In this document: positions 3,011 through 51,812 of the stretch, in pieces | Layout: each line of letters begins with the position of its first letter | Position numbering within the stretch: the stretch's first letter is position 1 | Assembly: GCA_046350615.1 (NCBI GenBank) | Contig: JAXMAA010000001.1 | Coordinates: 136,480-200,479 of the forward strand | Source of the DNA: Candidatus Saccharimonadales bacterium | Lineage (GTDB): Bacteria > Patescibacteriota > Saccharimonadia > Saccharimonadales > UBA7683 | Direction of reading: 5' to 3' | Length of the DNA stretch: 64,000 nt | The notes under the pieces: generated by a model | What the model saw: only the letters and a program-made list of their open reading frames with translations | Database searches by the model: none | Told to the model about the DNA's origin: nothing | Position numbers and translations under genes: made by a program

Positions 3011-3139
3011 TTTGATATTTATGTAGCATGTATCATTTTGCATGTAGCGTAGATGTAGCAATGACCATGTTTCATGTGTCGGACAAAATGCTACATGAAA
3101 CATCTATGATCAATGGCACATGTTACATGATAAATACGG
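3011..3139 (+). repeat. CATG/ATG-dense module, copy A (ftsA 3' end / ftsA-ftsZ spacer)
   Basis: About 13 ATG within roughly 125 nt. It shares exact words with the copies at 28.3 kb and 51.5 kb: agatgtagcaat, ccatgtttca, catgataaat, catgttacat. Confidence 0.6.
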
Positions 3140-4452
3140 AAACGACCGCTAGAACCCGAAACGGGAGAGGATTTTTGGAAGAGGTTTCGGGCTTGATCTG
3201 CGCTATGCTGCAACCTACCACCTAAGCCACGCCCACCGTAGCTAGTGTCTTCATCTTTATGAACATCGAGGAGCATCAGGCCTACTGCTGTCGCGTATTC
3301 TGGTCGCGCAACCTTCTCTTTTAATCCGCCTATGCTGGCTGGGAAAGCCACGCGAGCAGAAAGTGCCAGCTCCTCTTTCACGCTATCTCATCAATACCCG
3401 GAAGATGCGCCGTACCGCCCACCAGTGTGATACCGCCTGGGATTTTTTTGCTACGATGTATCTTTGCCAACTCTTTATCGACTGATTCAAATAGTTCAAC
3501 CAATCGGGCGGTGATAACCAGCTCAATATCTTTAGTTGGGAAAACGTGTTCACTCCGATTAACCACCACTTTTACATGCTTTGGCCGTGTTTTGCTGCTC
3601 TGCGTTAAAGTACTTGTAATTCTTTTTCACGGCTTCAGCAACTTTGAGATCGGTCCTGAGGCCAATGGCAAGGTCGTTAGTAATATGATTGCCACCAATT
3701 GGTATAACACTCACCAACTGCACATCGCCGTCTTCAATCACAATCAGGTTTGAGGTGGTCGCACCAATATCAAGTACCGCCACACCATTCTCACGCTGCT
3801 CTCGCGAAATCACCGCTTGCGCTGCGCCAAGACTACCCACGCTTAAACGATTAACGCGGGTTTGAGTAGTCTCAACCACTTTTTCAAGATTTTTTAATGC
3901 TGGCGCTGCAACCGTTACCACATGTGCATCAACCTCAAGCCGGGTGCCGCTCATGCCAATGGGGTCTTTAATATTAGCCTGGCCATCGAGATTATAACTA
4001 CGTGGGAAAACGCTCAAAATCTCGTGGTGCTGCGGCAGCTGAAGCACCGTAGCCGCATCTTCAACTCTCAAAAGATCATCCTCGGTAATTTCATTGCCAG
4101 AAACCGCAATGATGCCCTTAGAATCCACACCTTTGATGTGTGATCCGTTAATGTTTGCTGTTCCGCTGCTAATTTGAACCCCTGCCATACGCTCAGCGTT
4201 AGCAATCGCCTGATCAAGCGCTGAAGCCGTTTCAGATATATTGACTACGCTTCCTTTGCGAAATCCAGAGTTTATGGCTTCACCAAGGCCGATAAGTTTT
4301 ACTGTTTGATCTTCTTGTACCAGCCCAATAGTGCATCGGACTGAGGTGGTGCCAATATCAATACCCACCGCTACCTGTTGATGTTCTTGCATAGCTAAAA
4401 GTATACCGCTTGTGGCTACGCTTGTGCAACTGTCGGCTAAGATCAGTTTCAA
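3091..4452 (-). pseudogene. ftsA: Cell division protein FtsA split into three ORFs by two frame disruptions
   Basis: ORFs 3559-4452, 3378-3569 and 3091-3381 together read as one actin-like FtsA (VGIDIGTTSVR...LDIGATTSNL...GGTAHLPGIDEIA / KEELALSARVA). The probable true start is MQEHQQ at 4392. The frame changes near 3600 and near 3380. Confidence 0.85.
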
Positions 4453-15879: not shown

Positions 15880-16533
15880 TTATTTCCACTTTAAAATTGC
15901 TTCGTTTAAAATCCGAATGATCGCCTCTTGCTCAGGAACATCACTCTTCTCGTAGTAATGGTCGATTGCAAAGGTATCTTCAACAACTCGGAGCACTTGA
16001 AGCTCATCGCCCAGTACGTGCATCTTATCAACCGCGGCAACGGTAGCAAACGGTGCGGCTATGACTATCTTTTTGGTTTGAACCGGCTTCAAAAAGTTCA
16101 TAGCGGCCACAAGCGAAATACCGCTGAGCAAACCGTCTGAAACCAATATCACATTTCTATTTTGAAGCATTTCAGCATCCACCAAACCACCATCTCCAAG
16201 AAGCCGATTGAGCTCATGCTGCTTTTCCATCTTAAGCTGATCAAGCAGCCCGTGATATTCACTCGTCAGGCCTTCAAGCTCGCCTGTTGAAAAGAGGTCA
16301 TTGTAGGTAAACCCGCCACTTTGGTCAATCGTTCCCAGTTCCGTTCGTTCACCTGGTAAAACAATGTTTTTGGTAAGAAGAAACATAAGCGGGCAATGCA
16401 ACCGAGCCGTGATCTGCGCACCAATAACCACGCCGCCGTCACTCAGCGCAAGCACCACACAGTCTTCAAACCGATAGTGCTGCAGCTGTTTTGCCAACAC
16501 CTTGCCAGCCTCGGTACGCGATGCAAAATACAT
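15880..16533 (-). CDS. Phosphoribosyltransferase-family protein
   Basis: 217 aa. VVLALSDGGVVIGAQIT and NVILVSDGLLSGISL (PRPP-binding-like acidic loop). Confidence 0.65.
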   Translation of the reverse strand: MYFASRTEAGKVLAKQLQHYRFEDCVVLALSDGGVVIGAQITARLHCPLMFLLTKNIVLPGERTELGTIDQSGGFTYNDLFSTGELEGLTSEYHGLLDQLKMEKQHELNRLLGDGGLVDAEMLQNRNVILVSDGLLSGISLVAAMNFLKPVQTKKIVIAAPFATVAAVDKMHVLGDELQVLRVVEDTFAIDHYYEKSDVPEQEAIIRILNEAILKWK

Positions 16534-16580
16534 ACCCTCAGTTTACTACAGTATTTTCAACAACTCGCTATACTAGAGAT

Positions 16581-18505
16581 GTGAAGTACTATCTTGTGTG
16601 TCCAATCGGAGTAATCGGCGGTCGTGAAGACCTCCTTACCTATGGCTCAGAGAGTGAGCTTACTAATGGTGTAATCGTAAAAATTCCGTTTGGCAAACAA
16701 ATCAAGCTTGGCGTCGTTATTAAGGCAACGACTAAGCCATCATTCGTGACCAAGCCTATTACTGCTAGCCTGAGTGAAGTTGTGCCAGCACATCTTCTTG
16801 CACTCAGTTTATGGATGAGTGAATTCTATGCTGTTCGCCGTTCCATGGTACTGCAAACCATGCTGCCAAGCGGCATGGGTAAATCACGTCGCAGCAAAGA
16901 GCGGCCGCACGCGGGTGCCACAAGAACACTTCAGCACCACCCGCTCACGCAAGAGCAATCAGACGCTATTCAAGCTATCAACAGCTCAAGTGCCATCACT
17001 CATCTGCTGCACGGCGTAACCGGCTCTGGAAAAACCCGGGTGTATCAGGAGCTTGCTAAAAAAACACTTGCCGAGCAAAAAAGCGTCTTGGTGCTGGTGC
17101 CAGAAATTGCGTTAACCCCACAGTTGGCAGCAGAGTTTGAAAGCCTCCATCACAATGTTTTGGTACTTCATTCAGGGCTGACTGAAGCTGAACGACACAT
17201 CAATTGGCAGAGACTCAGCACGCGAACCATGGGTTGTATCGGCCCTCGTTCCATATTGTTTTCACCGCTTCATCCATCGGTTTAATCATCGTTGATGAAA
17301 TTGTCATGAAACTGGGTTATGCGCAAGATTCCCAACCAAAATACTGGCGCTCAGAGTAGCAAGAAACTCGCTGAACTTTGCGACGGCACAAAGCTATTAC
17401 TGGGCAGTAAACACCACTTATCACCGATTACTTTTTTGCTCAGAAAAACAAAGACACCGATTATAAAAGTCACCTTACCAGGCCCAACACTCCTCGCGAC
17501 ACAGGTGACATTGCTGATATAAAAGATCGCGGCACATTCGGTTCACATCCGTTATTTAGCAAAATTTTGCTTGAAAAAATGAACAATTCTCTTGTTCAAA
17601 ATGAGCAAATTTTGCTATTCCATAATCGTCGGGGCACGGCCCGTATGAGCCTGTGCGGCAATTGTGGCTGGGTGGCAGAATGTAAAAACTGCCATGTTCC
17701 CATGCGCCTACATCACGACCACTCCGAGCTTCGTTGCCATATATGTGGCCTCAAAGATCTTTTGCCGCAAATCTGTCCGGAATGCAAACACCCCGAAATT
17801 AACTTCAGAGGTTTTGGCAGCAAACGAATCGAAGCCGAGATACGGAAGTTGTATCCCGAGGCAAGTGTTGCACGTTTTGACAGCGACACACCGCTCAAGG
17901 AGCAACTTCATCACCGCTACCAGGAGCTCTATGATAATAAAATTCAAATCATCATCGGCACCCAGGGAATCGCTAAAGGACTCGACCTCCCCAACCTCAA
18001 CACCGTGGGTATAGTACAAGCCGATTCTGAGCTATTCATCCCAGATTTTTCCAGCAATGAGCGTTCGTTCCAGCTTACGACCCAGGTAATAGGAAGGGCT
18101 GGACGGACAGGAGCTCACAGTAGCGTGATCATTCAAACCCTTAATCCAGAACACCCAACTCTGCAATTTGCCAAAAATCAAAACTATGAAGCATTTTACG
18201 CCTTTGAAATTAACGAGCGAGCAGCTGAACACATGCCACCGCATACGTATCTGCTCCATGCTACCACCGGCTACAGTACCGCAGCCGCGGCAGAAACAGC
18301 AGCTAGAAAGCTATGGCAACAGATCAAGCATATTCACCCATCTGTCCATATCCGAGGCCCTTCCCCGGCTTTTCACGAGCACCGAGGCAAACTCTTTTAC
18401 CAACAACTTGTCATTAGCAGCAATAAACGTGGCGATCTTATAAAAATTGTCGAGTCACTTCCTCAACGCTGGCAATTCACGCTCGACCCAATCAACCTAC
18501 TCTGA
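16581..18505 (+). pseudogene. priA: Primosomal helicase PriA with an indel-dense middle section
   Basis: ORF 16491-17285 has LLHGVTGSGKTRVY and LVLVPEIALTPQ. ORF 17567-18505 has the CxxC zinc cluster (CGNCGW..CKNCHVPM..CHICG..CPEC) and the helicase C-domain. Between 17220 and 17560 the DExH region (GLIIVDE...) is readable only by hopping frames. Confidence 0.85.
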
Positions 18506-18534
18506 CATGTTTCAATCTGTTATACTTACATGCA

Positions 18535-19110
18535 ATGAATAAAGATAATATCGTTACGCTCCCGGAGCCTAATTTACGCAAACGTTCACAGAAAGTTGGC
18601 GTTATTACTGATGAGATAAAAAAACTTATTAAAGATATGATTGATGCCACCATTGATTGGGAAAATTCGCGCGATCACGAAGCTGCCGTTGGTTTAGCTG
18701 CTATCCAAGTCAACAAATTATATCGTGTTTTTATTATACGTAACGATTTTGAAACTATCACCGACAAGCGCTTTACGGCTTTTATTAACCCTGAAATTGT
18801 AAAAAAGATTGGTCCTATGGAGGAAGACTACGAAGGCTGCTTGAGCGTTCCGAATGTATATGGAAAAGTCGAGCGATACCAAAGCGTAAAGGTAAAAGCT
18901 CTCAATGAAAATGGCCAGAGTTTCCGTGTTACCGCCCATGGCTATCTTGCCCGGATCTTGCAACATGAAGTCGACCACACCCACGGCGTAGTCTTTATTG
19001 ATTATATTAAAAGCAAAAAGAACTCCTTCTTTCGTTTAATGCCGGAGGGTGGCCTAGAGCCGCTTGATTATGAAAAGGACATAAAGAATAATGCCATCCT
19101 CTGGAGATAA
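18535..19110 (+). CDS. def: Peptide deformylase
   Basis: GLAAIQV, EGCLSVP and HEVDH motifs; 191 aa. Confidence 0.95.
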   Translation: MNKDNIVTLPEPNLRKRSQKVGVITDEIKKLIKDMIDATIDWENSRDHEAAVGLAAIQVNKLYRVFIIRNDFETITDKRFTAFINPEIVKKIGPMEEDYEGCLSVPNVYGKVERYQSVKVKALNENGQSFRVTAHGYLARILQHEVDHTHGVVFIDYIKSKKNSFFRLMPEGGLEPLDYEKDIKNNAILWR

Positions 19111-19990
19111 ATCTTCGGTAGTTTTTTTTGGGAGCGGTCCGGTCGCCGCCAAAAGTCTTGAGCTTCTCCTCAAACACCAGGAAGTAGAAGCTATTGTTAC
19201 CAAACCCGCAACCAAAAACCACATGCAATCAATTGCATCCGATATCCCGGTGTATGCTGTAGGCAACAAAGCAGAACTTGATGGGCTGATTGTATCAGCA
19301 CTTTTTTCGAGCAACCTGGGGGTACTCATTGATTTTGGCATCATTGTTTCGCAAACAGTGATCGATTCGTTCACGCACGGAATTATCAACAGTCACTTCT
19401 CTCTTCTGCCTGAGTGGCGAGGCGCCGATCCAATCAACTTTTCAATCTTAAGCGGCCAAGCCAAAACTGGCGTGAGTCTCATGCTGGTAGATAAAGGTAT
19501 GGACACCGGCAAAATACTTACTCAGAAGACTCTTATCCTCAAACAAGATGAAACCAGCACAACTCTTACGCAAAAACTGATAGCACTCAGTGGTGATCTC
19601 CTGTGCGTGAGCATTCCCCGCTATCTTAAAGGTGAAATTAAGCCAAAAAATCAACCGCACCCAGACCGTGCAACATACTCAAGAAAGCTAGCTAAAAAAG
19701 ATGGTTCGCTCGATTTTACAAAGCCAGCAAAAATATTAGAGCGAGAAATCCGCGCATTCATTGAATGGCCAAAATCACGTACTACATTAGCAGGCAAAGA
19801 CGTAGTGATCTTGAAAGCCTCTCTTGACGACACAGCATCCGGACAAATTGGCGAAGCCTACGTAACTGACGACAAGAAAATCGGTATATATACTACTGCA
19901 GGTTCACTCATTATTGAAGATCTCAAGCCTGCCAACAAAAACCCAATGAGCAGCAAGGCATTCTTAGCTGGGTACGGTCACAATCTCTAG
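19091..19990 (+). CDS. fmt: Methionyl-tRNA formyltransferase
   Basis: 299 aa. HFSLLPEWRGADPI motif; def-fmt synteny. Confidence 0.9.
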   Translation: MPSSGDKSSVVFFGSGPVAAKSLELLLKHQEVEAIVTKPATKNHMQSIASDIPVYAVGNKAELDGLIVSALFSSNLGVLIDFGIIVSQTVIDSFTHGIINSHFSLLPEWRGADPINFSILSGQAKTGVSLMLVDKGMDTGKILTQKTLILKQDETSTTLTQKLIALSGDLLCVSIPRYLKGEIKPKNQPHPDRATYSRKLAKKDGSLDFTKPAKILEREIRAFIEWPKSRTTLAGKDVVILKASLDDTASGQIGEAYVTDDKKIGIYTTAGSLIIEDLKPANKNPMSSKAFLAGYGHNL

Positions 19991-20023
19991 GCAATCTGAG
20001 TCTTACGCATAACCGCCGCCCCT

Positions 20024-20050
20024 GCGAAGACGGGATCCAGTGGTACTAGA
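20024..20050 (+). repeat. Degenerate member of the CGTCATCC...GGATCCAG hairpin repeat family
   Basis: cgccgcccctgcgaagacgggatccag, downstream of fmt. Compare 59074-59101. Confidence 0.4.
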
Positions 20051-20083
20051 TTGCTACCTTTGCAGGAACGTTACCATTTTAAT

Positions 20084-20728
20084 CTAGAACGAAGGTGGTG
20101 GCGGAATACTGCCGGATAAAGATTTGTCGTCAGTCTGGCTATCTGCCTGAACTGTTTGCGTAGAAGGATCGGGTTGTAACGGTTGCTGAGCAATTGGTTG
20201 GCCAGATACTGACTGCACTGGTTGAGTAGAGTGCTGTATCGGTTGATTATATGTAGACGGAACGACGACGGGTTGAGCCGGATTATTTGCCGCTGGATAT
20301 TGGGGCATGTGAGCTGGCGCGGCTTGTGGCGCAGAGGAGAATTGTGGCTGTGCTGCCGTAGGCACTGGCTGAGGATATGTCTGCTGTATCGGAGCACCCC
20401 CAGGAATCTGTGTTTGCCCTTGCATAGTCTGGAGAATAGTAGCGGAGTCCTTCTTGATCTCTGTCTTTAACTTCTCAAGCTCATCTGCCACAACTTGTTT
20501 ATAATCAGGGAAGTTTGTTTCAAGCCATTTTAAAGCACCGGCCTCATCATTTGTATCAATAAAACGTTCAAACTCATCAAGCTGCTGGTCGGTCATCCTC
20601 TCGGCCAAACGCATACCAACTCGCATCTCAAGCGTTTCGTAAATCTGACGCAACATCTGATCGCGTTCCGCTTTAGGCAGCGATATCAATCCAATCTCTT
20701 CCAAAAGTGTATCGTCAATTCGTATCAT
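20084..20728 (-). CDS. Hypothetical protein with a helical N-domain and a P/Q-rich low-complexity C-terminus
   Basis: 214 aa. The N-terminal 95 aa are structured (MIRIDDTLLEEIGLISLPKAERDQMLRQIYETLE...); the remainder is PQ-rich. From memory it resembles DUF5663-type CPR proteins; not verified. Confidence 0.55.
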   Translation of the reverse strand: MIRIDDTLLEEIGLISLPKAERDQMLRQIYETLEMRVGMRLAERMTDQQLDEFERFIDTNDEAGALKWLETNFPDYKQVVADELEKLKTEIKKDSATILQTMQGQTQIPGGAPIQQTYPQPVPTAAQPQFSSAPQAAPAHMPQYPAANNPAQPVVVPSTYNQPIQHSTQPVQSVSGQPIAQQPLQPDPSTQTVQADSQTDDKSLSGSIPPPPSF

Positions 20729-27327: not shown

Positions 27328-27438
27328 TAATTCGGCGCCGTGCTACCTTCCCCTGAAGAGTATTATCGCCGCTACTGGGCTTAGCTTCTGTGTTCGGAAT
27401 GAGAACAGGCGTTTCCCCAGCGCTATGAGCACCGATTG
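27328..27438 (-). rRNA. rrf: 5S rRNA
   Basis: The reverse complement reads ...GGTGCTCATAGCGCTGGGGAAACGCCTGTTCTCATTCCGAACACAGAAGCTAAGCCCAGTAGCGGCGATAATACT...GGTAGCACGGCGCCGAA. Ends are approximate. Confidence 0.85.
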
Positions 27439-27589
27439 AGATATATGTTGTTTTTTAAGCAACATATATCCTGATCGATTCTTATAACGTTCTTTTAAAT
27501 TGAACGTGTGATCGTAATGATACACACAAATAACTGGTCAAACGTTCTCTTGTCTTCATTCGCTAAGGCGAATTCAAACAAGAGAAGCA

Positions 27590-30915
<3,326 letters not shown>

Positions 30916-31746
30916 GGTTTGACTAGTTATTAGTGATTACCAATAACTTGCCGTTGTCCAACTTAAAAGACCAACTAGATTGTTAATGATACTAACTCCA
31001 GATATGATATCTCGCATGAACTTGAGTTCAAATGTAGTCGTTGATTGCTGTCATCCTGAACTTGTTTCAGGATCTAATCAATTTCTCATCTGAACCTGCA
31101 GAGCTAGACAAGTGTATCAAGTAGAGCTTGTTGCAAAGTACGAAGCGCCTCGCAACTCTTTTTGGTAATAAAAAAGCTCTGATGAGATTGTTCACTAATT
31201 GTGGCATATAATCGCCAGAGGTTTCAACTCCTGAAATATCTGTTTCTGCATATCAAAATAGTATCAAATCACTCACCTGGTAACAGTATATCCATATTTG
31301 ATGTAATCAACAACGCTTATGGTTAATTTAATCTGTTAATATGACTTGCCTCCGCTTTTCAACAATGCTATATGTTTTGAGTTTGAACTGAAATGCTAGC
31401 AAAGAGGTTAATAACAGCCCTAGTGGATCACGAACACTGCTAGTGCAGATTAGCGCGCGTTCTGCCCAAGCCATCCTAACCAGTGCTTATTATCATGTAT
31501 AAGGATACTTTTTGCGCTCACCGAAAGCTTCAGTAATTTTCAGTTAAGCTATACCTACGAAAACTTTTCCATTAAATGTAACCAAAAGTTTTCCATAATA
31601 TTAGGATGTATATACCTTATTTCAAATTGATCATGGTGGCTTACTTTGATTAGCCCGGCATCAAGTAAGTTTTGTTCAAATACATTCATACTGTCAAAAG
31701 ATCATAGATTAAATTAATAAAGCAACAAAAAGAATCCTTTCAAATA

Positions 31747-31822
31747 ATGGCGATCCAGGATTTGAACCTGGGAATCCCCGCCATTATCAGTGACGCGCTT
31801 CAACCAACTGAGCTAAACGCCC
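31747..31822 (-). tRNA. tRNA-Ile (GAT), apparently damaged
   Basis: Reverse complement: GGGCGTTTAGCTCAGTTGGTTGAAGCGCGTCACTGATAATGGCGGGGATTCCCAGGTTCAAATCCTGGATCGCCA. The anticodon loop CTGATAA is fine, but the acceptor stem pairs only 5/7 and the D-stem has an extra base. Confidence 0.7.
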
Positions 31823-31852
31823 TCGATTTTGAAAAAGTTCTTATTATGTAAA

Positions 31853-31930
31853 TGGTGGAGACACAGGGACTGAACCCCGGACTCCCGCCTTGCAAAGGCG
31901 CAGTGCTCTAGCCAATCGAGCTATGTCCCC
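31853..31930 (-). tRNA. tRNA-Ala (TGC) with encoded CCA
   Basis: Reverse complement: GGGGACATAGCTCGATTGGCTAGAGCACTGCGCCTTTGCAAGGCGGGAGTCCGGGGTTCAGTCCCTGTGTCTCCACCA. Confidence 0.85.
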
Positions 31931-32596
31931 TCGTCGGAATTTTCGCTGATCTTGTTTTTCTTTCAGAAAAACTTGATCTTAAGCTATATTCTCCTCCTCA
32001 CTTAAAAAAGTCGCTGCGCTTTGTTTTTAACCGAAGAAATCTTCAATACGAACAGATGCTATTCTATCTTATTCATTGATTATTCGCAAGCGGACGGCCA
32101 AGTAAATTAAACGTAATGGGAATTTTCGGACAAATTTACTTGGTTTAGCTGTCATTGGTGCTGGAGGCTTATCGCTTATAAAGAACTATCAGGTTGCAAA
32201 TACAATGCCGCTTCGGTGGCTAGAACAGAAGCTTGGCTCAGCAGCTCATACAGCATCTGGAAGATCATCTCGGTTCTTCTGGCATTTATTGGGTTTACTG
32301 TTATGTTCGGCTTTGCAGATAATCTGCTCACTTTCCCATTAATGATCACAACATGATTACGTTGCTGTTGGTTCCAATTGAGAATGAGATAAAGATAATC
32401 ATTAAATTAAAATCGCTCATTACGGGCGATTTTGTTATTAAAAACTGAGTAGTGCAACGTCGTAGTTAAGTAAAAGGTGAATCTAAGTTCAATCCTGAAA
32501 GGATAGAATTGTTTTATAGATCTCCATTAAAACAATCGAGACCGACCTCGCTCATAAAGCTAGATTGCTCATAACTATGGCTAGAACTCCCTTGCG

Positions 32597-34055
32597 AAAG
32601 GAGGTAATCCATCCCCACCTTCCGTAGATACCTTGTTACGACTTAACCCCAGTTATCCCCCCACCTTAGGCTCAATAAATTAGACTCGGGTGTTGGTGAC
32701 TTCATGCATTTGACGGGCGGTGTGTACAAGACCTTGAACGTATTCACCGTAGTGTGCCGACTCACGATTACTAGTGATTCCATTGGGCGCAGGCGAGTTT
32801 CAGCTCGCAATCCGAATCCGCCGGGGGACTTGGCTTACGGACGAGTTCCCCTCGCGGGTTGGTTGCCCTTGCACTTACGCATTGTAGCGTTTTTCTAGCC
32901 CAGGACGTAAGGGTAATAATGACCTGACATCATCCCCTCCTTCCCTCCCCGTTACCGAGGCAGTCTGTTTAGAAAAATCCGGCACCGAAATATAAGGGTT
33001 GCGCTCGTTGAAGGACTTAAACCTAACATCTCACGATACGAGCTGACGCTTGGCTATGCAACACTCAGTCACTTGTCCATTAAAGCAATTTTCTTGCTTT
33101 CGCAGAAATTCCAAGGATGTCAAGCCCTGGTAAGGTTCTTCGCTTATCATCGAATTAAAGAACACGCTCCACTACTTGTGCGGGTCCCCGCTTGGTTCCT
33201 TTGAGTTTTAATCTTGCGACTGGTAATTCTGCGCGGATGCTTAACGCGTTAGCTTCTGCTACTAGAAGGGTCGATACTCCTAACAGCTAGCATCCATCGT
33301 TTACGGCGCATCAATGGCATCTAATCCCGTTCGCCTCACGCTTTCGTGCCTCAGTGTCAGAAATGAGCCAGTCACCTGCCTACGCCATTGGTGTTCCTCC
33401 TTATATCTACGGATTTCACTCCTACACAAGAAATTCCAGTGACCTCTCTCATTCTCGAGCTGTGCCAGTTTGAATAATGTGTTGATGGTTGAGCCACCAG
33501 ATTTCACTATTCACTTTAGTTTAGCCACCACGCAACTCTTTACGCCCAGTAAATCGGATAACGCTTGATCCTCCAGGCGACCGCGCTGCTGCACGGAGTT
33601 GGGCTGATCCTTATCTGGCGTGCTTACCGTCATATTTCGCACATAAAAGCAGTTTATAATCCGAAAACCTTCATCCTGCACGCGGTGTTGCTCCATCAGG
33701 TTTGCGCCCATTGTGGAAAATTCCTAACTGCCTCCTGTAGGAGTCTGACCGTGTCTCTAGTTCCAGTGTGGCTGATCATCCTCTCAAATCAGCTGAAGAT
33801 CGTCGCCTTGGTAAGCCTTTACTCTCACCAAACTAGCTAATCTTACGCGGGGCTCTTCTCAAACTGAAGCTTTAATCCGAAGACTATATGCGGTATTAGA
33901 CACCGTTTCCAGGTTATCCCTCAGTTTGGGGTAGATTCCACGTGTTACCTTACCTGTCCGCTGTCGTGTACTCTTCGAAGGGGCCTACCGCTCGACTTGT
34001 ATGTTTTAGGTACGCCGCCAGCGTTCATCCGGAGCTTTGTGATCAAACTCTCCAT
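32597..34055 (-). rRNA. rrs: 16S rRNA (recognisable, but universal sites are altered)
   Basis: Reverse complement starts AGAGTTTGATC and ends ...AAGTCGTAACAAGGTATCTACGGAAGGTGGGGATGGATTACCTCCTTTC. TGTACACACCGCCCGTCA is intact, while the 515, 785, 907 and 1050-1100 regions carry indels and substitutions. Confidence 0.85.
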
Positions 34056-34247
34056 AAAAAAGTGTTTAATTCTAACTTCGTCGAAATACTGAACATCTCA
34101 AATTATTAAACATCAAAACTTAACGTTGATGCTGTATCATCAGTTTTTAAAGTGAGCCTCTCTCTGTAAGAATTAAGAATGATTGCCCCCAGATAAGACC
34201 AATGGTATTACTCGTAATCTCGCATAAAAGATCAGGATAGTACTGCA

Positions 34248-34610
34248 TCAATTGTATGAAAACAGATCGATCCTGTCAACAGTAAAGGTGGGCCTTTTGC
34301 TGTAATTTATGTAACAATAAACACAAGCACAGGTACAACTACACCTATCAGCAGGCCCGTACACCTCGAATGGTGTGTGTCCATTAGATTGATGAATTAT
34401 CATCTTAGGTAGGTGATCTTTTTTTAAAAAATTCCAGGCACAATAGCTGTGGTATTCTGAGCGTGCTCGCCACATCCGTATGCGTGTTACCGATGGCACT
34501 GGCACATAATAATCGCAGCTGAATACAGGTAACCAAATTCGACTTTTTGAGCCCAACCTATAGGCCAAACCGTACAGAGCGAAACAATCACCGGCATGCG
34601 CGCTCGGCAT
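34248..34610 (-). pseudogene. Remnant of a radical-SAM protein (N-terminal fragment only)
   Basis: ...HTPFEVYGPADRCSCTCACVYCYINYSKR contains a CxxxCxxC cluster. The ORF stops 17 codons later, about 190 nt before the 16S 5' end. Confidence 0.4.
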
Positions 34611-34729
34611 GCCTCCTGAACGATAGATATACCGCTAATCCCAATCTTTCTTGGTTATTCCCATAAGAACTATCTTGGCGATCTGTGCCATTATATCCAC
34701 GTAAAGATAGGATTACAAAGTATGCGTAA

Positions 34730-37212
34730 CTACTGAACCACTGTCTCATTATCGCTACCTTCCCGCAACTCTTCTTCACCAGACTGATCCTTGGAAACCG
34801 CAAAGCGGTTGATGCCACGGTATCATTATCGGCTAGGCGCATGATTCTTACACCTTGAGTAGTTCGGGCCAAGTGATGGTATATCTTTAAGCTCGGTTTA
34901 ATTGCCCGCCGTTTGTTGAAATAATAACTTAGGAGTCTCTGTCAGTTAATGATTTCACTGGAGACGAGATTGCCTGTTTTGGTCATAACAGCAGATCGAA
35001 TATCAATTTTACCTCGTTTATGCGGACTGAATCGATATTTTGGTCCAGCCGCCATAACCTCTTTCACTGATTACAAAGATACTGATTCTTCCGAACAACG
35101 TCCATCCCCACTACCAGACGCCAGCGCAGCCTCATACTGCGCAATAATACCCCGAGCAGTGCGACCTGCGCACGCAATATCGTTCTCGTGGAAGCGGATT
35201 GCTCAATGCTGGCGATGTTGAAATAACAACTTTACGACCGTTGCGGTGAGCCTTGATCCATTTCAGCTCATCACTATCGTCAATTCCTTATTGCAATCAA
35301 ACCACTTGGTTCGGATGTTATTGTAATCCTCTAACTTGGTTCTCTTTAACTGTGCCTGCTTTGGTAGCCAGTAAAGAAGCAGCCAGTCTTCTGCTTTGAT
35401 CGTAAGCGACAACTGCAGAACAGCCTCCTCTGATGAAGGTAAGAGGTTCATCAGCAATACCTGCACAGCCCCGCGCAGGAACCCCGGAACTTAAGCCTGA
35501 ACATTCTGATCCTTACAGCAGTGTACACAGATAATCATGCACTGCTGCGAAGCAATATGTTCAATTACATCAGCCCTTTCGTGGCCATTCCGCGCTTGCC
35601 TTTCCTGCCCTCGTTCCGGCGACGATATTCAGAAGCTTAGACCAGCTGGATATAATTCTCTGATGTGACTGCTATAACAACCTGCTCTTCCGGAATCAGT
35701 TCTTCATCACTAAACTTTACTGAGCTCATGGTTATCAATCTTGGAACGATTTTCATCACCATATTTTTTAATTTCAAGCACCAGTTTTAATAATCTTCTA
35801 GACCTCGTTCTCGCCATGATTGCCTCGCTTTTAGCAATCAGAGTCATCAGCTCTTTAGCTCATCTTCGATCGCCTGCGCCTGACCAGAAGACGACGCAGC
35901 AGCTGCATCGCGAGCATGGCCTTGGCTTGAATTTGAGAGCTTAAACTGTTTAATTGGAGTTCTTCTCGGCCTCTTCTTGGTTCGTTTCACGAATGGTCTT
36001 AATTCATTTCATCGATATTATCCAGTGCAATCTTGTAACCTTCAAGATGTGCACGTTCTTTGGCTTGGTCTTGCAGCTCAATTCGGTACGCCTTCGAACA
36101 ACCTTCTGGCGGTGTTTGATAAATTCTGCAGCATTTCTTGCAGCCCAAGAATTTTTGCTGAATGCCATCAACCAGTGAAAGCATATTGAAGCAAAGCTGT
36201 TTGCAGCGCTGTTTGCTTATACAGCTGGTTCAGGAGCTTCTTGGGGTAGGCATCTTTTTTGAGTTCGAATACGTTCTGAACGTACTGCTATGCTGTTTCA
36301 TCGCGTAGATCCGCAATATTACCTTGAATCTTCTTATCTTTTACCAGTTAACTCTGCGATCTTTTCGATAAGTGTTGCTTTATTTATACCATATGGCATC
36401 AGTCACAATAATCTGGTGGCGACTCTTCTTGGTTTCTGGCTTACGGGTAAACTTCGCACGTACTATCATGCCAACACGACTTGTCATAGGCTCGCTTCAT
36501 CGGTACCTACCAATGGTTGCGCCTGTTGGAAAATCAGGACCTTTACATGTTTTAGGAGGTCATCAATGGTTGCCTCTTTGTTGTCAATCAACTCAACGAT
36601 ATCAACTGAAGCCTGCTAAGGTTGTGCGGGGGAATGCTATTGCCAGCACGACCGCAATACTGACTGATCGTTCAGGAGTAAGTTTTACAGCTTAGCTTAA
36701 GCAGGTTCCATTGCCCTTGCAAGCGGCCATCGTAGTTATCTCGAAAATCAATAGTGTCTTTATCGATATCAGCTAACATCTCATCAGCTGCGAGCCAGAT
36801 GAGCCTCGGTGTAACGCATCGCTGCGGCTTCGTCACCATCCATTGAACCAAAGTTACTCTTGATCAATAAGAGGATATCGTAGAGACCACGGCTGCGCTA
36901 AGCGAATCCACGAATTGCAAATAGCTGTATCGCCGTGCGGATGAAAGTCACCCATCACCGCACCAACAATCGTTGCACTCTTACGATGCCTAAGTACTCC
37001 GCACGCAGGCCATCACGGTTCATGGTATAAAATACGACGAGATGACCGGGCTTGAGACTGTCGCGCATACATCCGGCAGCGCACGCTCAATAATCACGCT
37101 CATTGAGTAACGGCAGTTGTTCATCACCTGTTCAATTGTTCGGTACCAGACCGTCATCATCTTTGTATAAACGGTCGCGCATCTGTTTGGGGGTAGTATT
37201 TGTGCTGTTCAT
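34730..37212 (-). pseudogene. gyrA: DNA gyrase subunit A, heavily frame-disrupted
   Basis: Minus-strand translation is readable only in fragments: MNSTNTTPKQMRDRLYKDDDG..., ...KPGH..., FGSMDGDEAAAMRYTEAHLA (active-site Tyr region), ...TQGVRIMRLADNDTVAS..., and an acidic tail ...SGEEELREGSDNETVVQ*. No ORF longer than about 95 aa survives. Confidence 0.85.
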
Positions 37213-37218
37213 ACTTAA

Positions 37219-39184
37219 ATAGATTCAGGCCTCATATCTGCATTTTCGCCCTTGTCTGAATAAAGCTTTTTCTCAGCGACACATCGTCACCCATCAGCTT
37301 TGTAAAGACGGCACGGCCTCTTCTGCGTCAAAGTGTCAGGTACGCAAAGAACCAGCACTCGGTTCTCGGGATTCATCGTGGTCTCCTAGAGCTGTTCATA
37401 CCATAATCCATTTCGCCAAGACCTTTAAAACGAGAGATTGTAACGCCAGCTTGTTTCATCTTATCTTCAGTGGCATTCAGGAAGCCGTACCACGCCTTTT
37501 TCGGCAATAATCTCGTCCATCACACGCTCACGCTCATCTTCGTCATAGGCATAGATCTTCTTTTGATTCTTGCCAATGCCGTAAAGCGGTGGTTTTGCTA
37601 AATACACGCAGCCACCTCGTCAATTTCTTCTGCAGAGTATTCGAAGAAGAATGTGAGGAGCAACGTTAAATATGACTGCCGTCGTCATCGGCATCAGTCA
37701 TGGCGATAATCTGTGATATCGGAGGCCAGTTGAATATCAAATTGCTCACCGATACCAACTCCAAATGCTTGAATCAGGCATACAATTTCTTTGTTTGCAA
37801 ACATTTTATCAAGCCAGCTCGCTCAGTATTGAGCACTTGCCACAAAGCGCAATTGCTGTGTTTTGTTATCTCGCCTTCTTTTAGCAGACTTCTGCGTCGA
37901 GTTACCTCTCACAATATAGATTTCGCTATCGTCAGGGCTCTTACCGGAAACAATCCCAGAGCTTACCCGGGTTAGGCCCATGCCATCAAGCACTTCTTAC
38001 GGAGCATCACATTTACGAGCGGCACGAGCAGCCTTACGAGCACGAGCAGCCAAGAGCGCTTTGTTAACAATCTTCTTTGCTATATCAGGTTTCTAATGAT
38101 AGTATGCAAAATACTCGTTCATCACCTCCGCTCAACATAGCGAATAACTTCGGTTGCCGTGTTTATTTTTGGTCTGGCCTTCAAATTGTGACCAGAAGTT
38201 TCACCAAGATAATTGCCGTTAAGTCTTCTCGGATATCATCACTACCGAGATTATCTTCTTTTTTCCTTGCTGTAACCATTTTTACGGGCGTAATCATTTA
38301 TCACCCGAGCTACGCAGCACGAAAAGCCAACTGGCGTGCTGCCATCAGGAGTTAGCACATTGTTAGCAAAATGGCTTGACCATTTCAACAAATGAGTCAT
38401 TGTAATTTGAACTGCCATTTCAACTATAGAATCTCAATTCCGACGTTCAATATAAATGGTTTACTGCTCAAAATATCTTTGCTAATATTCGAGAGGAGCG
38501 CATATAGCCTGAATGCCAATTTCAAAGTAGAATGACATGCGATCGCCAGTGCGCTCATCAAGTACCGATGTGCGAACCCCTTTTGTAAGATACGCTTGAT
38601 GTCAGATAGTTAACAACCCATTTATAATCGAATTCGACTGTTTCTTTAAAATTGTTGAATTTCCAGATAGAACGATGCTAGTGCCATGGATTTGTCGGTT
38701 GGGCCAATATTTTGGCGGCAGACTTGGCAACACCCTGCTCAAATTCTATTCTGTAAAGCTTGCCATCCTTAGAAACCTCAGCAATGAGTTTGGTTGAAAG
38801 CGCGTTCACTACGCTTGAGCCCACACCGTGCAAGCCAGAAGATACTTTATAGCCACCACCGCCAAACTTACCACCCGCATGAAGAACGGTTAAGACTGTT
38901 TCGAGTGTACTTTTGCCAGTTTTTGCATGCTTGTCTACTGGGATACCACGACCATCATCAGTAATAGTAATGCCACCATCTGCTAGAATTTTTACATCTA
39001 CAAATGTCGCATATCCAGCAATTGCTTCGTCAATACAGTTGTCGGCAATTTCTTTAATTAAGTGATGTACGCCATCATATCCTGTACTACCAATATACAT
39101 ACCTGGACGTTTTCGAACTGGTTCAAGTCCTTCAAGCACTTGAATTTGACTGGCGTCATAGGCCTGATCTTTTTGTTTGCTCAC
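37219..39184 (-). pseudogene. gyrB: DNA gyrase subunit B: first 168 codons intact, remainder frame-disrupted
   Basis: ORF 38678-39184 reads [33 protein letters not shown]...[21 protein letters not shown]. Downstream fragments: GTSIVF, EIYIV.G.S...SAK (Toprim), IIAMTDADDDGSHI, KGLGEM-like. Confidence 0.9.
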
Positions 39185-46212: not shown

Positions 46213-46806
46213 CTGTAATTTATTTTAATCACTCCACTTAGTATTGTATAGACTTTGTAAAAACTAAAAAGCTAGAGCACAAATCCGCCAACGTAATAGA
46301 CTATTGTAGCGCTTGTGAACTCTAGCTGTGACTGACCGCTCTCAATCAAGAGAGCGCCATCGCTGCCCATGCAGCTGAAAATTGAATGTAAGGTGGTGCT
46401 CAATATGAGCCTTTTTAAGCATAACAAGTATGATTAAAAATTGCAAGTATATTTTAAAGTATAATTAACAACAATATGGATCAAATATCCAATAATTAAT
46501 GTTGTTATATTAACATTTTGTTTAATTTTAGTCCTGTTAAAAAACGATGTCTCAAGATTTATTGTGCAGTCTATGTGTCATTTATGCTTATATTGATAAA
46601 ACTTGCCACCAAATAACTACCCCAGCACTGGCTATCACTACTCAACACCGAGCCACAGCAACTAGCTAAAGCGGTGTATTTTTTCGTTTAGATCTCAAGA
46701 CTCCACCGCTATCAACCTGAACGTTTAGTCAAAATCAAGTATACATGCCGTTATTAAAAGTTCGTGAACATAATATATTTATATCCATCCCTCAAACCCT
46801 CCTGCC

Positions 46807-46854
46807 CGTCATTCCCGTACTCAATCGGTGTCAAGCATGAACTCTGGCGAGAAT
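46807..46854 (+). repeat. Long variant of the CGTCAT(T/C)C...GAATCCAG element, interrupted by the IS
   Basis: cgtcattcccgtactcaatcgg...ggcgagaat is followed by the IS, and ccag resumes at 47961. Confidence 0.4.
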
Positions 46855-47956
46855 CCGTATTAACCGCATAATTTCGGTTGACCCTCACTTGCACTGCTCA
46901 CGACCTGCCATCTGTAAAAAGGGCTGGATAATCATGGGTGGCTGTGCTTTTCTGGTGTATGGAAATACGACAACAAAAAAGCACCTGCTGCAGCGCCCGT
47001 GTGCGACGCTACGGTGGCAAACGAAGACAATGTGCCGCCTGTAAACAAACCTGGAGAGTATACCCTGCAAAACGAGGTCCAAAAAAGAGGCGGCCAGATG
47101 TACATCTACTTGAGCTGTACCGGTGTAACTGTATTGGGTCGCTTGCTGCTCATGCTCAGCGCACAAGCTACACACCGTCTACCATCCAGCGAAGGGTCGT
47201 TTCTGCTCGGGAAAGTGTCGTTCGTGCTGCCGCCAAAGAGTCTATGACCTGCGTAGAGCCTCATATCCTTCTTGCAGATGCACTGCATCAAAAGATAGGT
47301 GCGGTGCAGTACGTTACATATCTCATTCTCGTACGCCCGCTCCGGAGTAATCGGGCTGCAGTGTGCGCCACCACAACGGCTCGAGGTGCTGAAACCGGCA
47401 TTGGGTGGCAAAGAGCACTCTCGCATGTTCCCTCAGAGATGCTTGCTCAAACAAGAGCACTCGTCAGCGATGGACATCGGGGGCTCCTACGTATTGCGAG
47501 GCAGCGAGGCTGGGTGCAGCAACGATGCTGCTTTCATGTACTGAAAGAGCTCAACAAGAACATGCGACTATGGCACCGAGCTACACCCGAGACATACTGG
47601 GTGCATGAACTGGTGCATATAGTACTGGAGTCACCCGATGACGAGCGGGTCTCTAGGGTGCTCGGGCTATTGAGTGATTATGCGATGCAAACACCCAGAA
47701 CCGAAGTTGCAAGTATTTTACGAGGATTAGTACAAAACTTCCGAGACTACCGAAGCTATCTATACTATCCAGAGTTGCATTTACCCGCAACCAACAATAG
47801 CTGTGAATCTAGCTTTCGAAGAGTACGGGCACTGCAAAACAAGGCTCGAGGTTGGCGTACACCAACTGCCTACGAAGGATGGGTTACCTATGTACTGCGC
47901 AACTCAAAGGACGTACAGTGCTTAGAGGGTCAACCGAAATTATGCGGTTAATACGG
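46855..47956 (+). mobile_element. Insertion sequence (about 1.1 kb) with perfect 32-bp terminal inverted repeats
   Basis: Left end ccgtattaaccgcataatttcggttgaccctc (46855-46886) is the exact reverse complement of gagggtcaaccgaaattatgcggttaatacgg (47925-47956). GAAT flanks both ends. A single transposase ORF ends inside the right IR. Confidence 0.9.
46938..47951 (+). CDS. DDE transposase with an N-terminal zinc ribbon (IS256/Mutator-like catalytic motifs)
   Basis: 337 aa. CCSARVRRYGG..CAACKQTW; LLADALHQK (DAxxxK), LVSDGHRGL (SDxHxGL), ATNNSCESSFRRVR (TNxxES). Confidence 0.75.
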   Translation: MAVLFWCMEIRQQKSTCCSARVRRYGGKRRQCAACKQTWRVYPAKRGPKKRRPDVHLLELYRCNCIGSLAAHAQRTSYTPSTIQRRVVSARESVVRAAAKESMTCVEPHILLADALHQKIGAVQYVTYLILVRPLRSNRAAVCATTTARGAETGIGWQRALSHVPSEMLAQTRALVSDGHRGLLRIARQRGWVQQRCCFHVLKELNKNMRLWHRATPETYWVHELVHIVLESPDDERVSRVLGLLSDYAMQTPRTEVASILRGLVQNFRDYRSYLYYPELHLPATNNSCESSFRRVRALQNKARGWRTPTAYEGWVTYVLRNSKDVQCLEGQPKLCG

Positions 47957-47974
47957 GAATCCAGTTCAGATACT

Positions 47975-48002
47975 AGATCCCGGATCAAGTCCGGGATGAC
48001 AC
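47975..48002 (-). repeat. Member of the CGTCATCC...GGATC hairpin repeat family
   Basis: The reverse complement is gtgtcatcccggacttgatccgggatct. Confidence 0.5.
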
Positions 48003-48484
48003 CGGTGAGTTTTGAGAGTCAGTTATTTATAGATTGACCAAATTTTTCGCCAAACTCAACATGTCAAAGCCAATGAGTTGGTGATTTATGATTCAGGCAC
48101 ATTTTTAAGCCGAACCCAACACCGACTGCAGCGCGCTCAAGTTAATTGCTACTTCAGTTTAATACCAATCACCGCTAGGCAGCTTGTATGCTTCGATTAA
48201 AAAGATGTTCATAAAGATAGTAGATAAGAAATCGGAGTATGGCCAAATACCGTGCAACTATACATTGGGGTTTGCCCTATAAAGAAGCTATTGATCACGC
48301 CCCGCACATTGACGCCCCGATGCACCGCAAAATGCACACCGAGCTACCATAGCACTAACATTTTTCGTAGCTTGGAGTCAGTGACTGCGTAGCAAATAAT
48401 TCTATGGCAAGACATTCTCAGGAATTGCTAGAAGCTAAGTAGATTATATGTGGATAACTACTTTTAAATTTCTTTCATTTTTGT

Positions 48485-48513
48485 GTTGACATAACCTTTT
48501 TGGAGGCCTATTA
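48485..48513 (+). promoter_or_regulatory. Near-consensus sigma70-type promoter
   Basis: TTGACA (48485-48490), a 17-nt spacer, then TATTAT (48508-48513). Confidence 0.55.
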
Positions 48514-51313: not shown

Positions 51314-51803
51314 GCTAGATCACTAGGTGGTCGCCCCGATTCATAGGGGAGGAAAGTCCGGGCAGCACAGGACAAGGCAGTTGCTAACGGCAACCGGGGG
51401 CAACCCTAGGGAAAGTGCCACAGAAACGAAACCGCCTGCTGTGTGGAACACAGCATTTAACAATTTACATGTAGCACGTAACAGAGATTTAACAGATGCC
51501 ATGTAACATTTATGATGGACCCATTTGATACATGAAAAACGATACATCTTTGATTAGTGATACATGCTCCATGATAAATGTCGTGCTCCGCACGGCGGGT
51601 AAGGGTGAAACGAGTGAGGTAAGAGCTCACAGTCGGCCGTGGTGACACGGAAGAGAGGTAAACCCTGCCTGCTGCAAGGAGATTTGGTTGCACTTAAGGC
51701 TGTCCGCCGTAATCAGATCACAAGAACCGCTCGATTTGTCCAGCAATGGGCCAACTAGATAGATGATCACCCTCGACAGAACCCGGCTTATCGGTGGTCT
51801 AGC
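51314..51803 (+). ncRNA. rnpB: RNase P RNA (bacterial type A) with an insertion of about 130 nt in P12
   Basis: GAGGAAAGTCCGGGC, GGGAAAGTGCCACAGAAA, GGTAAGGGTGAAA, GGTAAGAGC and ACAGAACCCGGCTTA. P1 pairs gctagatcac (51314) with gtggtctagc (51794). Confidence 0.9.
51456..51586 (+). repeat. CATG/ATG-dense module, copy C, inside RNase P RNA P12
   Basis: Three gatacat direct repeats. gatacatctttgat (51541-51554) is identical to the 23S copy, and catgataaat (51570-51579) is identical to copy A. Confidence 0.6.
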
Positions 51804-51812
51804 ACCCGGTTT

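Follow-up and report, generated by a model that had tools for sequence, protein, structure and literature searches.

The window, that is, the whole 64-kb stretch of DNA analyzed here, is a stretch of a Saccharibacteria (TM7) genome. Its minus strand carries gyrB (37220..39184), the adjoining gyrA (34733..37235), a DUF212-family gene downstream of gyrA (34310..34758), a 16S rRNA gene (32597..34058), tRNA-Ile(GAT) and tRNA-Ala(TGC) genes in the rRNA spacer (31746..31930), and genes for 23S rRNA (27588..30908) and 5S rRNA (27330..27436). Most of gyrB, gyrA, the DUF212 gene, the 16S gene, both tRNA genes, and four fifths of the 23S gene are contained in a low-accuracy block (28054..38727, assigned to neither strand) of ~10.65-10.7 kb, whose upper edge lies at 38727-38733 and whose lower edge falls within 28045-28096. 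The gyrB-gyrA gene order is the same in the related contigs L001, L002, and L081; all three are short-read contigs and stop just past the DUF212 gene, which is where the rRNA operon starts in the window.

In gyrB, only the first ~152 codons (38728-39184) have escaped damage; the remainder is shattered. The initial annotation had described the first 507 nt as clean and had placed the onset of damage after codon 168, with the loss of a base at tccat as the first error. An ORF of 168 aa (38678-39184) is indeed present, and PF02518 (HATPase_c, the N-terminal GHKL ATPase domain) matches its residues 37-134, but its final ~16 codons are already out of frame: the earliest detectable error is an additional G after GGTGTT at ~38727, a second frame change follows near 38709, and the tccat deletion near 38689 is only the third detectable error, which moves the onset ~45 nt earlier, to codon ~152.

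Frame breaks were counted by our own frameshift-aware dynamic-programming alignment, with contig L081 as the reference for gyrB, gyrA, and the DUF212 gene; plain tblastn searches of the window with GyrB and GyrA from relatives returned fragmentary mixed-frame matches unsuited to break counting, and a generic scan of overlapping ORFs for additional breaks was too noisy for use. This alignment, a check that had been proposed for gyrB and gyrA against a relative, revealed 27 and 50 frame breaks, respectively, and the indel types were tabulated. In gyrB, the breaks are accompanied by four in-frame stops, the gene is not continuous through its transducer, Toprim, and C-terminal domains, and amino-acid identity to the L081 protein drops from 89.7% to 62.2% at 38716. 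The gyrA gene is shattered over its whole length, with three in-frame stops and no continuous frame, yet 804 codons are colinear with the 851-aa L081 GyrA (66% identity over matched codons). The equally shattered DUF212 gene shows 12 frame breaks and one stop relative to its 151-aa L081 orthologue, which matches PF02681. Altogether, the three block genes contain at least 89 frame breaks and eight stops in 4.4 kb, compared to no breaks and no stops in 2,246 codons of three flanking genes aligned in the same manner to the same contig, a difference well beyond what chance would produce. The longest minus-strand ORF between 34730 and 38677 does not exceed 94 aa, in line with the earlier estimate of ~95 aa from the first break to the gyrA stop. 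Likewise, all four diagnostic peptides previously reported as legible in changing frames, namely SEIYIVRGNSTQKSAK, IAMTDADDDGSHI, NFGSMDGDEAAAMRYTEAHLAR, and TTQGVRIMRLADNDTVAST, were recovered by the frameshift-aware alignment, the Toprim motifs of gyrB being discernible only by switching frames.

The damage extends to the non-coding genes. The 16S gene scores 861.6 bits against its Rfam model (RF00177), compared to 1476-1504 bits in three relatives, and its universal motifs are disrupted, for example in the 515F region. Across 1003 columns invariant in 17 relatives, it carries 133 substitutions, 16 deletions, and 19 inserted bases in a MAFFT alignment, a procedure that inflates substitutions by drawing an insertion and a nearby deletion as a run of mismatches; no relative has more than 12 substitutions in the same columns. 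The spacer tRNAs score 38.7 and 42.2 bits, whereas scores in relatives are 67-72 bits and the two tRNAs that lie outside the block reach 63-65 bits; the spacer tRNAs also show disrupted stem pairs and a T-loop of 6 nt. The whole 23S gene scores 1559 bits, versus ~2480 bits for one nearly complete relative (L053, model positions 1-2884 of RF02541). Damage begins at its 5′ end (30908) and continues to ~28.05-28.10 kb, with about 20% deviation at looser invariant columns; indels and broken pairs occur throughout the model alignment before position ~2448, from which point on the sequence is error-free and the helices are intact. Pairwise comparisons with L053 and L060 likewise show this lower edge. 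The 5S gene lies outside the block and is apparently intact (78.8 bits, full length, helices in place).

That the gyrase peptides are still recognizable might suggest functional genes read by programmed frameshifting or some other recoding. Against this idea stand all of the frame changes and stops counted above and the alteration of ~14% of the first and second codon positions that are otherwise invariant (14.6% and 13.6%, respectively), and it is refuted because the rRNA and tRNA genes, which are not translated, are damaged likewise. There is no footprint of selection in the block: codon positions 1 and 2 are equally hit, and universal rRNA motifs are broken.

Both ends of the damage are abrupt. 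Of the columns that 50 relatives share without variation, 167 lie upstream of 38750 in gyrB and none of them deviates, whereas ~13% of those downstream do, the jump lying at ~38730; deviation then runs at 14-20% through the 16S and 23S genes and drops back at ~28.05-28.10 kb, in the middle of the 23S gene. Overall, ~13-15% of positions constant among 17-50 relatives are altered, corresponding to an error density of ~1 per 7-10 bases. The edges, at gyrB codon ~152 and 23S model position ~2447, are both intragenic, which agrees with the abrupt boundary first noticed in gyrB. Outside the block, the 3′-terminal ~470 nt of the 23S gene, the 5S gene, and the flanking genes are clean. No repeats were found at the block ends, nor any sign of a duplication or mobile element. 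The errors ignore gene boundaries, affecting gyrB, gyrA, the DUF212 gene, the 16S gene, the two tRNAs, and the 23S gene alike. The initial annotation had confined the damage to gyrB and gyrA and thereby underestimated its extent threefold.

The same annotation had judged the problem to be localized rather than a matter of general poor quality. The clean flanks agree with this, but two further sites show that the problem recurs in the assembly. A small low-accuracy patch in priA (17209..17485, plus strand) contains 10 frame breaks in ~280 nt relative to two PriA references, without breaks in the ~300 nt before it or the ~1000 nt after it, and TIGR00595 positions 1-92 and 191-488 fall in separate ORFs. 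In addition, ftsA (3094..4452, minus strand) is interrupted near 3570 and again near 3381 by isolated single-base frame breaks, which leave three ORFs that match successive parts of TIGR01174 (positions 2-260, 274-334, and 338-370).

To characterize the error mix, unit-cost alignment was applied at 1,498 rRNA sites in fully invariant context, with error classes called against the consensus of relatives rather than the true sequence; these sites contain 95 substitutions, 69 insertion events, and 55 deletion events, or ~43% substitutions, 32% insertions, and 25% deletions. The deletion-rich texture that had been proposed is thus not clearly seen: insertions occur about as often as deletions, and neither class is as large as that of the substitutions. 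The substitutions are transition-biased (57 transitions versus 38 transversions). Gaps are short (93% of at most 3 nt, maximum 11 nt), deletions average ~1.9 nt as computed from gap-length counts, and the genes remain colinear with their relatives. The errors are bursty, with a dispersion 1.6-3 times that of a Poisson process. The proposed base loss in short nucleotide runs was not supported either: 20 of 37 one-base deletions fall in runs of ≥2, a small sample set against a background of 45-49%, no indel excess in runs is detectable, and run-length spectra are nearly normal and close to those of relatives.

These features bear on whether the gyrB-gyrA-rrn segment might be a real inactivated copy that is decaying neutrally while a functional copy persists elsewhere in the genome, the pseudogene alternative that had been left open. 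The transition bias of the substitutions would fit such a relic, as would the insertion-to-deletion event ratio in the coding part of the block (0.77), and the search for a second copy covered only the window, within which no second gyrase or rRNA gene was found. However, indel events outnumber substitutions at the invariant-context rRNA sites (124 versus 95), and natural bacterial mutation spectra contain roughly one indel per ten substitutions. A dead gene would be expected to decay over its full length, whereas the clean 5′ 455 nt of gyrB continue in perfect register into the damaged part, and at the other edge, in mid-23S, the final ~470 nt of that gene are pristine. Almost all indels are 1-3 nt long, without a single large deletion despite ~14% divergence, and there are no flanking repeats or mobile-element signature. 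Furthermore, priA and ftsA, which are normally single-copy, are broken likewise. In bacterial pseudogenes, 396 deletions removed 7,421 nt, or ~19 nt per deletion, at an insertion-to-deletion event ratio of 0.76 (Danneels et al. 2018, PMC6054270). The block resembles such neutral decay in this ratio and in its breaks, stops, and substitutions along formerly coding sequence; it differs in its far shorter deletions, in its preponderance of indel events over substitutions, and in edges that cut genes, with rRNA, tRNA, and several essential single-copy genes hit together. The relic reading is therefore unsupported by these tests and highly improbable. A variant, in which the block is a real decaying rrn-gyrA-gyrB copy with edges that date from a recent tract of gene conversion or recombination, donated by an intact second copy, would account for the sharp borders, but we consider it just as improbable; if true, the decaying copy would represent an unusual large-scale retention of a relic in a reduced episymbiont genome. 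Real damage would be remarkable, since it would inactivate an essential topoisomerase along with the sole rRNA operon in view, and every test run points away from it.

Since the 10.7-kb noisy stretch also ruins the 16S and 23S genes, the interval at ~28.05-38.73 kb is very probably an assembly-quality artefact, namely raw-read-level noise between accurate flanks, rather than a biological loss of gyrase. This retains the earlier suggestion of noise like that of uncorrected long reads, which is still the best explanation for a block in which errors fall alike on conserved rRNA sites and on codon positions 1 and 2, and in which indel events, almost all of 1-3 nt, outnumber substitutions. What the analysis observed directly is how far the errors extend, how dense they are, how they are composed, and that they disregard genes; from these, we infer a sequencing platform and an assembly history. 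In the proposed history, accurate contigs or well-polished sequence would end in conserved sequence on either side, one end lying inside gyrB just after a 21-residue motif and the other in the peptidyl-transferase region of the 23S gene. The gap between them, which takes in the rRNA operon along with gyrA and the greater part of gyrB, would have been bridged by uncorrected long reads, very few in number or even a single one, whose error mix is nanopore-like and which were presumably never polished. The rRNA operon is where a bridge would be needed, because short-read contigs of relatives break there. It is almost certain that, in the organism itself, the gyrB, gyrA, 16S, and 23S genes at this locus are intact.

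In several respects, the block is comparable to a bridge or gap-fill of unpolished long reads, typically spanning an rRNA operon, as occurs in metagenome assemblies of the hybrid or long-read type: a read-length scale of ~10.7 kb, an error level typical of raw reads, sharp borders in conserved sequence, accurate flanks, an rRNA operon inside the block, and smaller patches and stray one-base frame breaks elsewhere in the contig. It departs from that pattern in its lack of detectable homopolymer bias and its near parity of insertions and deletions. Homopolymer-linked deletion is a hallmark of nanopore data, and the error rate of the block exceeds that of modern nanopore reads. The platform is thus uncertain because homopolymer-linked deletion was undetected, deletions do not clearly exceed insertions, and the rate is above that of modern nanopore sequencing. 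For Oxford Nanopore reads, an error rate of 6-8% has been reported, in which mismatches account for 32%, insertions for 27%, and deletions for 40%, and transitions exceed transversions (Delahaye and Nicolas 2021, PMC8486125). The block likewise mixes mismatches, insertions, and deletions at comparable levels and in proportions close to the published ones, favors transitions, and shows local bursts, but it is altered at ~14% of conserved sites, and deletions are not its largest class.

The missing homopolymer signature would be compatible with an artefact of another origin, either post-assembly corruption (a software fault or deliberate in silico mutation) or mis-polishing by cross-mapping Saccharibacteria reads, as would edges that are arbitrary relative to genes and the position of the block over the most conserved genes, which draw cross-mapping reads. 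Reads from other species, however, cannot alter positions that are invariant in all relatives, and simple random corruption would yield transversions twice as often as transitions and errors with Poisson spacing, in contrast to the observed 57:38 ratio and 1.6-3-fold overdispersion; a simulator with a realistic error model would be compatible with both. Such an origin is considered very unlikely, and noise from an unpolished bridge is preferred.

The consequences are mainly a matter of quality control, as the 16S, 23S, gyrA, and two tRNA genes, together with gyrB beyond ~152 codons, carry roughly 14% errors. The 16S, 23S, and gyrA sequences and most of gyrB in this record are therefore unusable as markers. 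The 16S gene is only 78-81% identical to the other Saccharibacteria 16S genes compared, a level that rank thresholds allow to be read as a deep new lineage, and naive marker-based taxonomy could take it for one. Similarly, surveys of gene content or pseudogenes would wrongly score a loss of gyrase, PriA, and FtsA.

A same-species contig that would provide a base-exact error profile was not found, the nearest relative having only ~80% DNA identity: a metagenome scan for same-species sequence reached at most 69%, and exact-match look-ups of two flanking proteins returned no match. For the flanking DUF11 gene, the best protein relative is 92% identical and is located on contig L081 (~80% DNA identity). 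As to a possible chimera with another organism, relatives rank in a slightly different order in the clean part of gyrB, which comprises only 455 nt, and in the block. The flanks and the block share L009 among their closest relatives, and L009 is the best DNA match for both the upstream flank and the spacer.

Most of gyrB (39184 to ~37220), all of gyrA (37235 to 34733), a DUF212-family gene (34758 to 34310), the genes for 16S rRNA (34058 to 32597), tRNA-Ala and tRNA-Ile (31930 to 31746), and most of the 23S rRNA gene (30908 to 27588), all on the minus strand, fall within a single interval of low accuracy (the block, ~28.05–38.73 kb), beyond which lie 5S rRNA (27436 to 27330, minus) and an intact glycosyltransferase gene (27215 to 26439, minus). 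The shattering of gyrB and gyrA reported in the initial annotation was confirmed and proved more extensive, reaching past the gyrA stop codon, where it had been thought to end, into the DUF212 gene and the rRNA operon. The block measures ~10.65–10.7 kb, and each edge falls inside a gene, the upper in gyrB and the lower in 23S.

Frame breaks were counted by a frameshift-aware protein-to-DNA alignment of our own, with reference to L081, a Logan assembly that is the closest contig available and shares 92% identity with the window in the flanking DUF11 protein. This yielded 27 frame breaks and 4 in-frame stops in gyrB, 50 and 3 in gyrA, and 12 and 1 in the DUF212 gene, versus none of either in three flanking genes (2,246 codons). 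The minus strand between 34730 and 38677 contains no ORF longer than 94 aa, and every diagnostic peptide quoted earlier for this region is legible in shifting frames. Compared with L081, GyrB is 89.7% identical in amino acids ahead of coordinate 38716 and 62.2% identical beyond it; in a 51-sequence nucleotide alignment including 50 relatives, 0 of 167 columns invariant among those relatives deviate in the window upstream of 38750, versus ~13% between that point and the gyrA terminus. For the undamaged N-terminal portion of gyrB, the best relatives are Candidatus Saccharibacteria metagenome-assembled genomes, at ≤91% amino-acid identity. The damage is first detectable as a surplus G following GGTGTT (~38727), and the frame changes again near 38709; the tccat deletion (near 38689), previously taken as the first break, ranks third, and the damage therefore truly begins at codon ~152. 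The described 168-aa ORF does carry the GyrB ATPase domain, and its tail is out-of-frame sequence, stop-free by chance. Invariant codon positions 1 and 2 are changed at 14.6% and 13.6%, respectively; thus, the block bears no trace of purifying selection.

The rRNA operon is comparably affected. The 16S gene scores 861.6 bits against its Rfam model (1476–1504 in three relatives) and shares just 78–81% identity with its counterparts in the other Saccharibacteria compared. Of 1003 columns that do not vary among 17 relatives, 133 are substituted and 16 deleted in the window, which also has 19 inserted bases of its own; none of the relatives exceeds 12 substitutions. Disruption of universal motifs, for instance the 515F region, is plain to see. 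The spacer tRNAs, with broken stem pairs and a T-loop of 6 nt, score 39–42 bits, compared with 67–72 in relatives and 63–65 for tRNAs outside the block. For 23S, the score is 1559 bits versus ~2480 in a nearly complete relative, and invariant columns deviate by 10–27% per 200-nt bin as far as the 28000 bin. Before model position ~2447, the alignment holds many indels and non-canonical pairs; past it, helices are intact all the way to the 3′ end and differences from relatives look compensatory. The last certain errors lie near 28096, and a variable hairpin limits the lower edge to 28045–28096. The 5S gene appears intact. The 23S gene is 3321 nt long for a bacterial model of 2925 positions, and its stretches at ~28263–28462 and ~28892–29082 have no BLAST alignment to relatives; relatives' 23S genes are likewise long (e.g., 17334–20489 in the related contig L053), and these are probably lineage-typical expansions, blurred in the window by noise.

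Because MAFFT displays nearby insertion–deletion pairs as mismatch runs, the window was re-aligned to the relatives' consensus at unit cost, and only sites in fully invariant context were counted. Across 1,498 such rRNA sites there were 95 substitutions (57 transitions and 38 transversions, with G-to-A the most frequent change), while insertions numbered 69 events (106 bases) and deletions 55 (76 bases), for a total of ~14.6 events per 100 sites, ~43% of them substitutions, ~32% insertions, and ~25% deletions. Relative to L081, gaps in the coding part comprise 192 deletions and 148 insertions, 93% being ≤3 nt and the longest 11 nt; gap-length counts give a mean deletion of ~1.9 nt and an insertion-to-deletion size ratio of ~0.7. 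Clustering is moderate (1.6–3× Poisson), part of which may stem from alignment. Together with the transition excess, it disfavours simple random corruption of the sequence; cross-species mis-polishing cannot explain errors at positions where no relative varies. Of 37 one-base deletions, 20 fall in nucleotide runs, so that in these small numbers no enrichment over the 45–49% background was detectable, and the run-length spectrum is near that of relatives; the earlier description of a deletion-rich texture with loss in short runs is therefore unsupported as a general property. Inserted bases match a neighbour in 22 of 51 cases, not above chance. Nanopore reads, with 32% mismatches, 27% insertions, 40% deletions, and more transitions than transversions (PMC8486125), resemble the block in having all three error classes at comparable fractions and in the transition excess, but the block has a higher error rate and deletions are not its largest class. 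The platform behind the errors is tentatively considered nanopore-like.

Real decay, with the block as a pseudogene copy, is very improbable. A dead gyrB would be expected to decay end to end, yet its first ~455 nt are pristine and in register with the damaged part, and the opposite edge cuts 23S within its most conserved domain. Indel events outnumber substitutions, contrary to natural bacterial mutation, which produces roughly one indel per 10 substitutions. Despite ~14% divergence, all genes remain colinear with relatives and deletions are tiny, whereas deletions in curated bacterial pseudogenes average ~19 nt (7,421 nt/396 deletions), with an insertion-to-deletion size ratio of 0.18 (PMC6054270). 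Decay would also remove gyrA, gyrB, two tRNAs, and the only rRNA operon in view together; no second copy of the operon or gyrase genes was found within the window, nor were repeats found at the block ends. A technical artefact, with raw-read-level sequence noise, is strongly favoured, and the block is not a new biological feature. The 16S, 23S, gyrA, two tRNA genes, and most of gyrB from this record should not be used.

Two further defects occur elsewhere in the contig. A second dense patch in priA (16491–18505, plus) holds ~10 frame breaks in ~280 nt (17209–17485), clean on both sides, and PriA model positions 1–92 and 191–488 are split over separate ORFs. In ftsA (3091–4452, minus), three ORFs (4452–3559, 3569–3378, and 3381–3091) match consecutive parts of FtsA model TIGR01174, with two isolated frame breaks, one of which, near 3381, resembles a lost G in gcgtgaaag. 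Patches that differ greatly in length yet share one texture, accompanied by scattered one-base frame errors, match what is seen in a long-read or hybrid assembly whose polishing is incomplete. The large patch lies exactly where relatives' short-read assemblies break: in the closest relatives' contigs (L001, L002, and L081), gyrB, gyrA, and the DUF212 gene are intact, and all three contigs, from independent short-read assemblies, end just beyond the DUF212 gene, ~300–900 nt past gyrA and just before 16S, where the rRNA operon starts in the window. The junction between gyrA and the rRNA operon thus seems to be a place where assemblies of related Saccharibacteria systematically break.

Relative to L081, the window also carries an extra ~2.1 kb at ~46250–48500 (G+C of 0.52 versus ~0.45), within which an ORF (46938–47951, plus) encodes a Mutator-family transposase; this stretch is probably an insertion-sequence element. 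A giant ORF of 2596 aa (7572–15362, minus) contains 16 DUF285 repeats along with PKD and Big_7 domains, and its C terminus unexpectedly ends in a HATPase_c domain (histidine-kinase-type ATPase, residues 2490–2595). The ORF could be a real fusion or reflect a stop codon lost between two genes. The bacterial type A RNase P RNA (51315–51806, plus) is 492 nt long for a 367-position model and therefore bears sizeable insertions.
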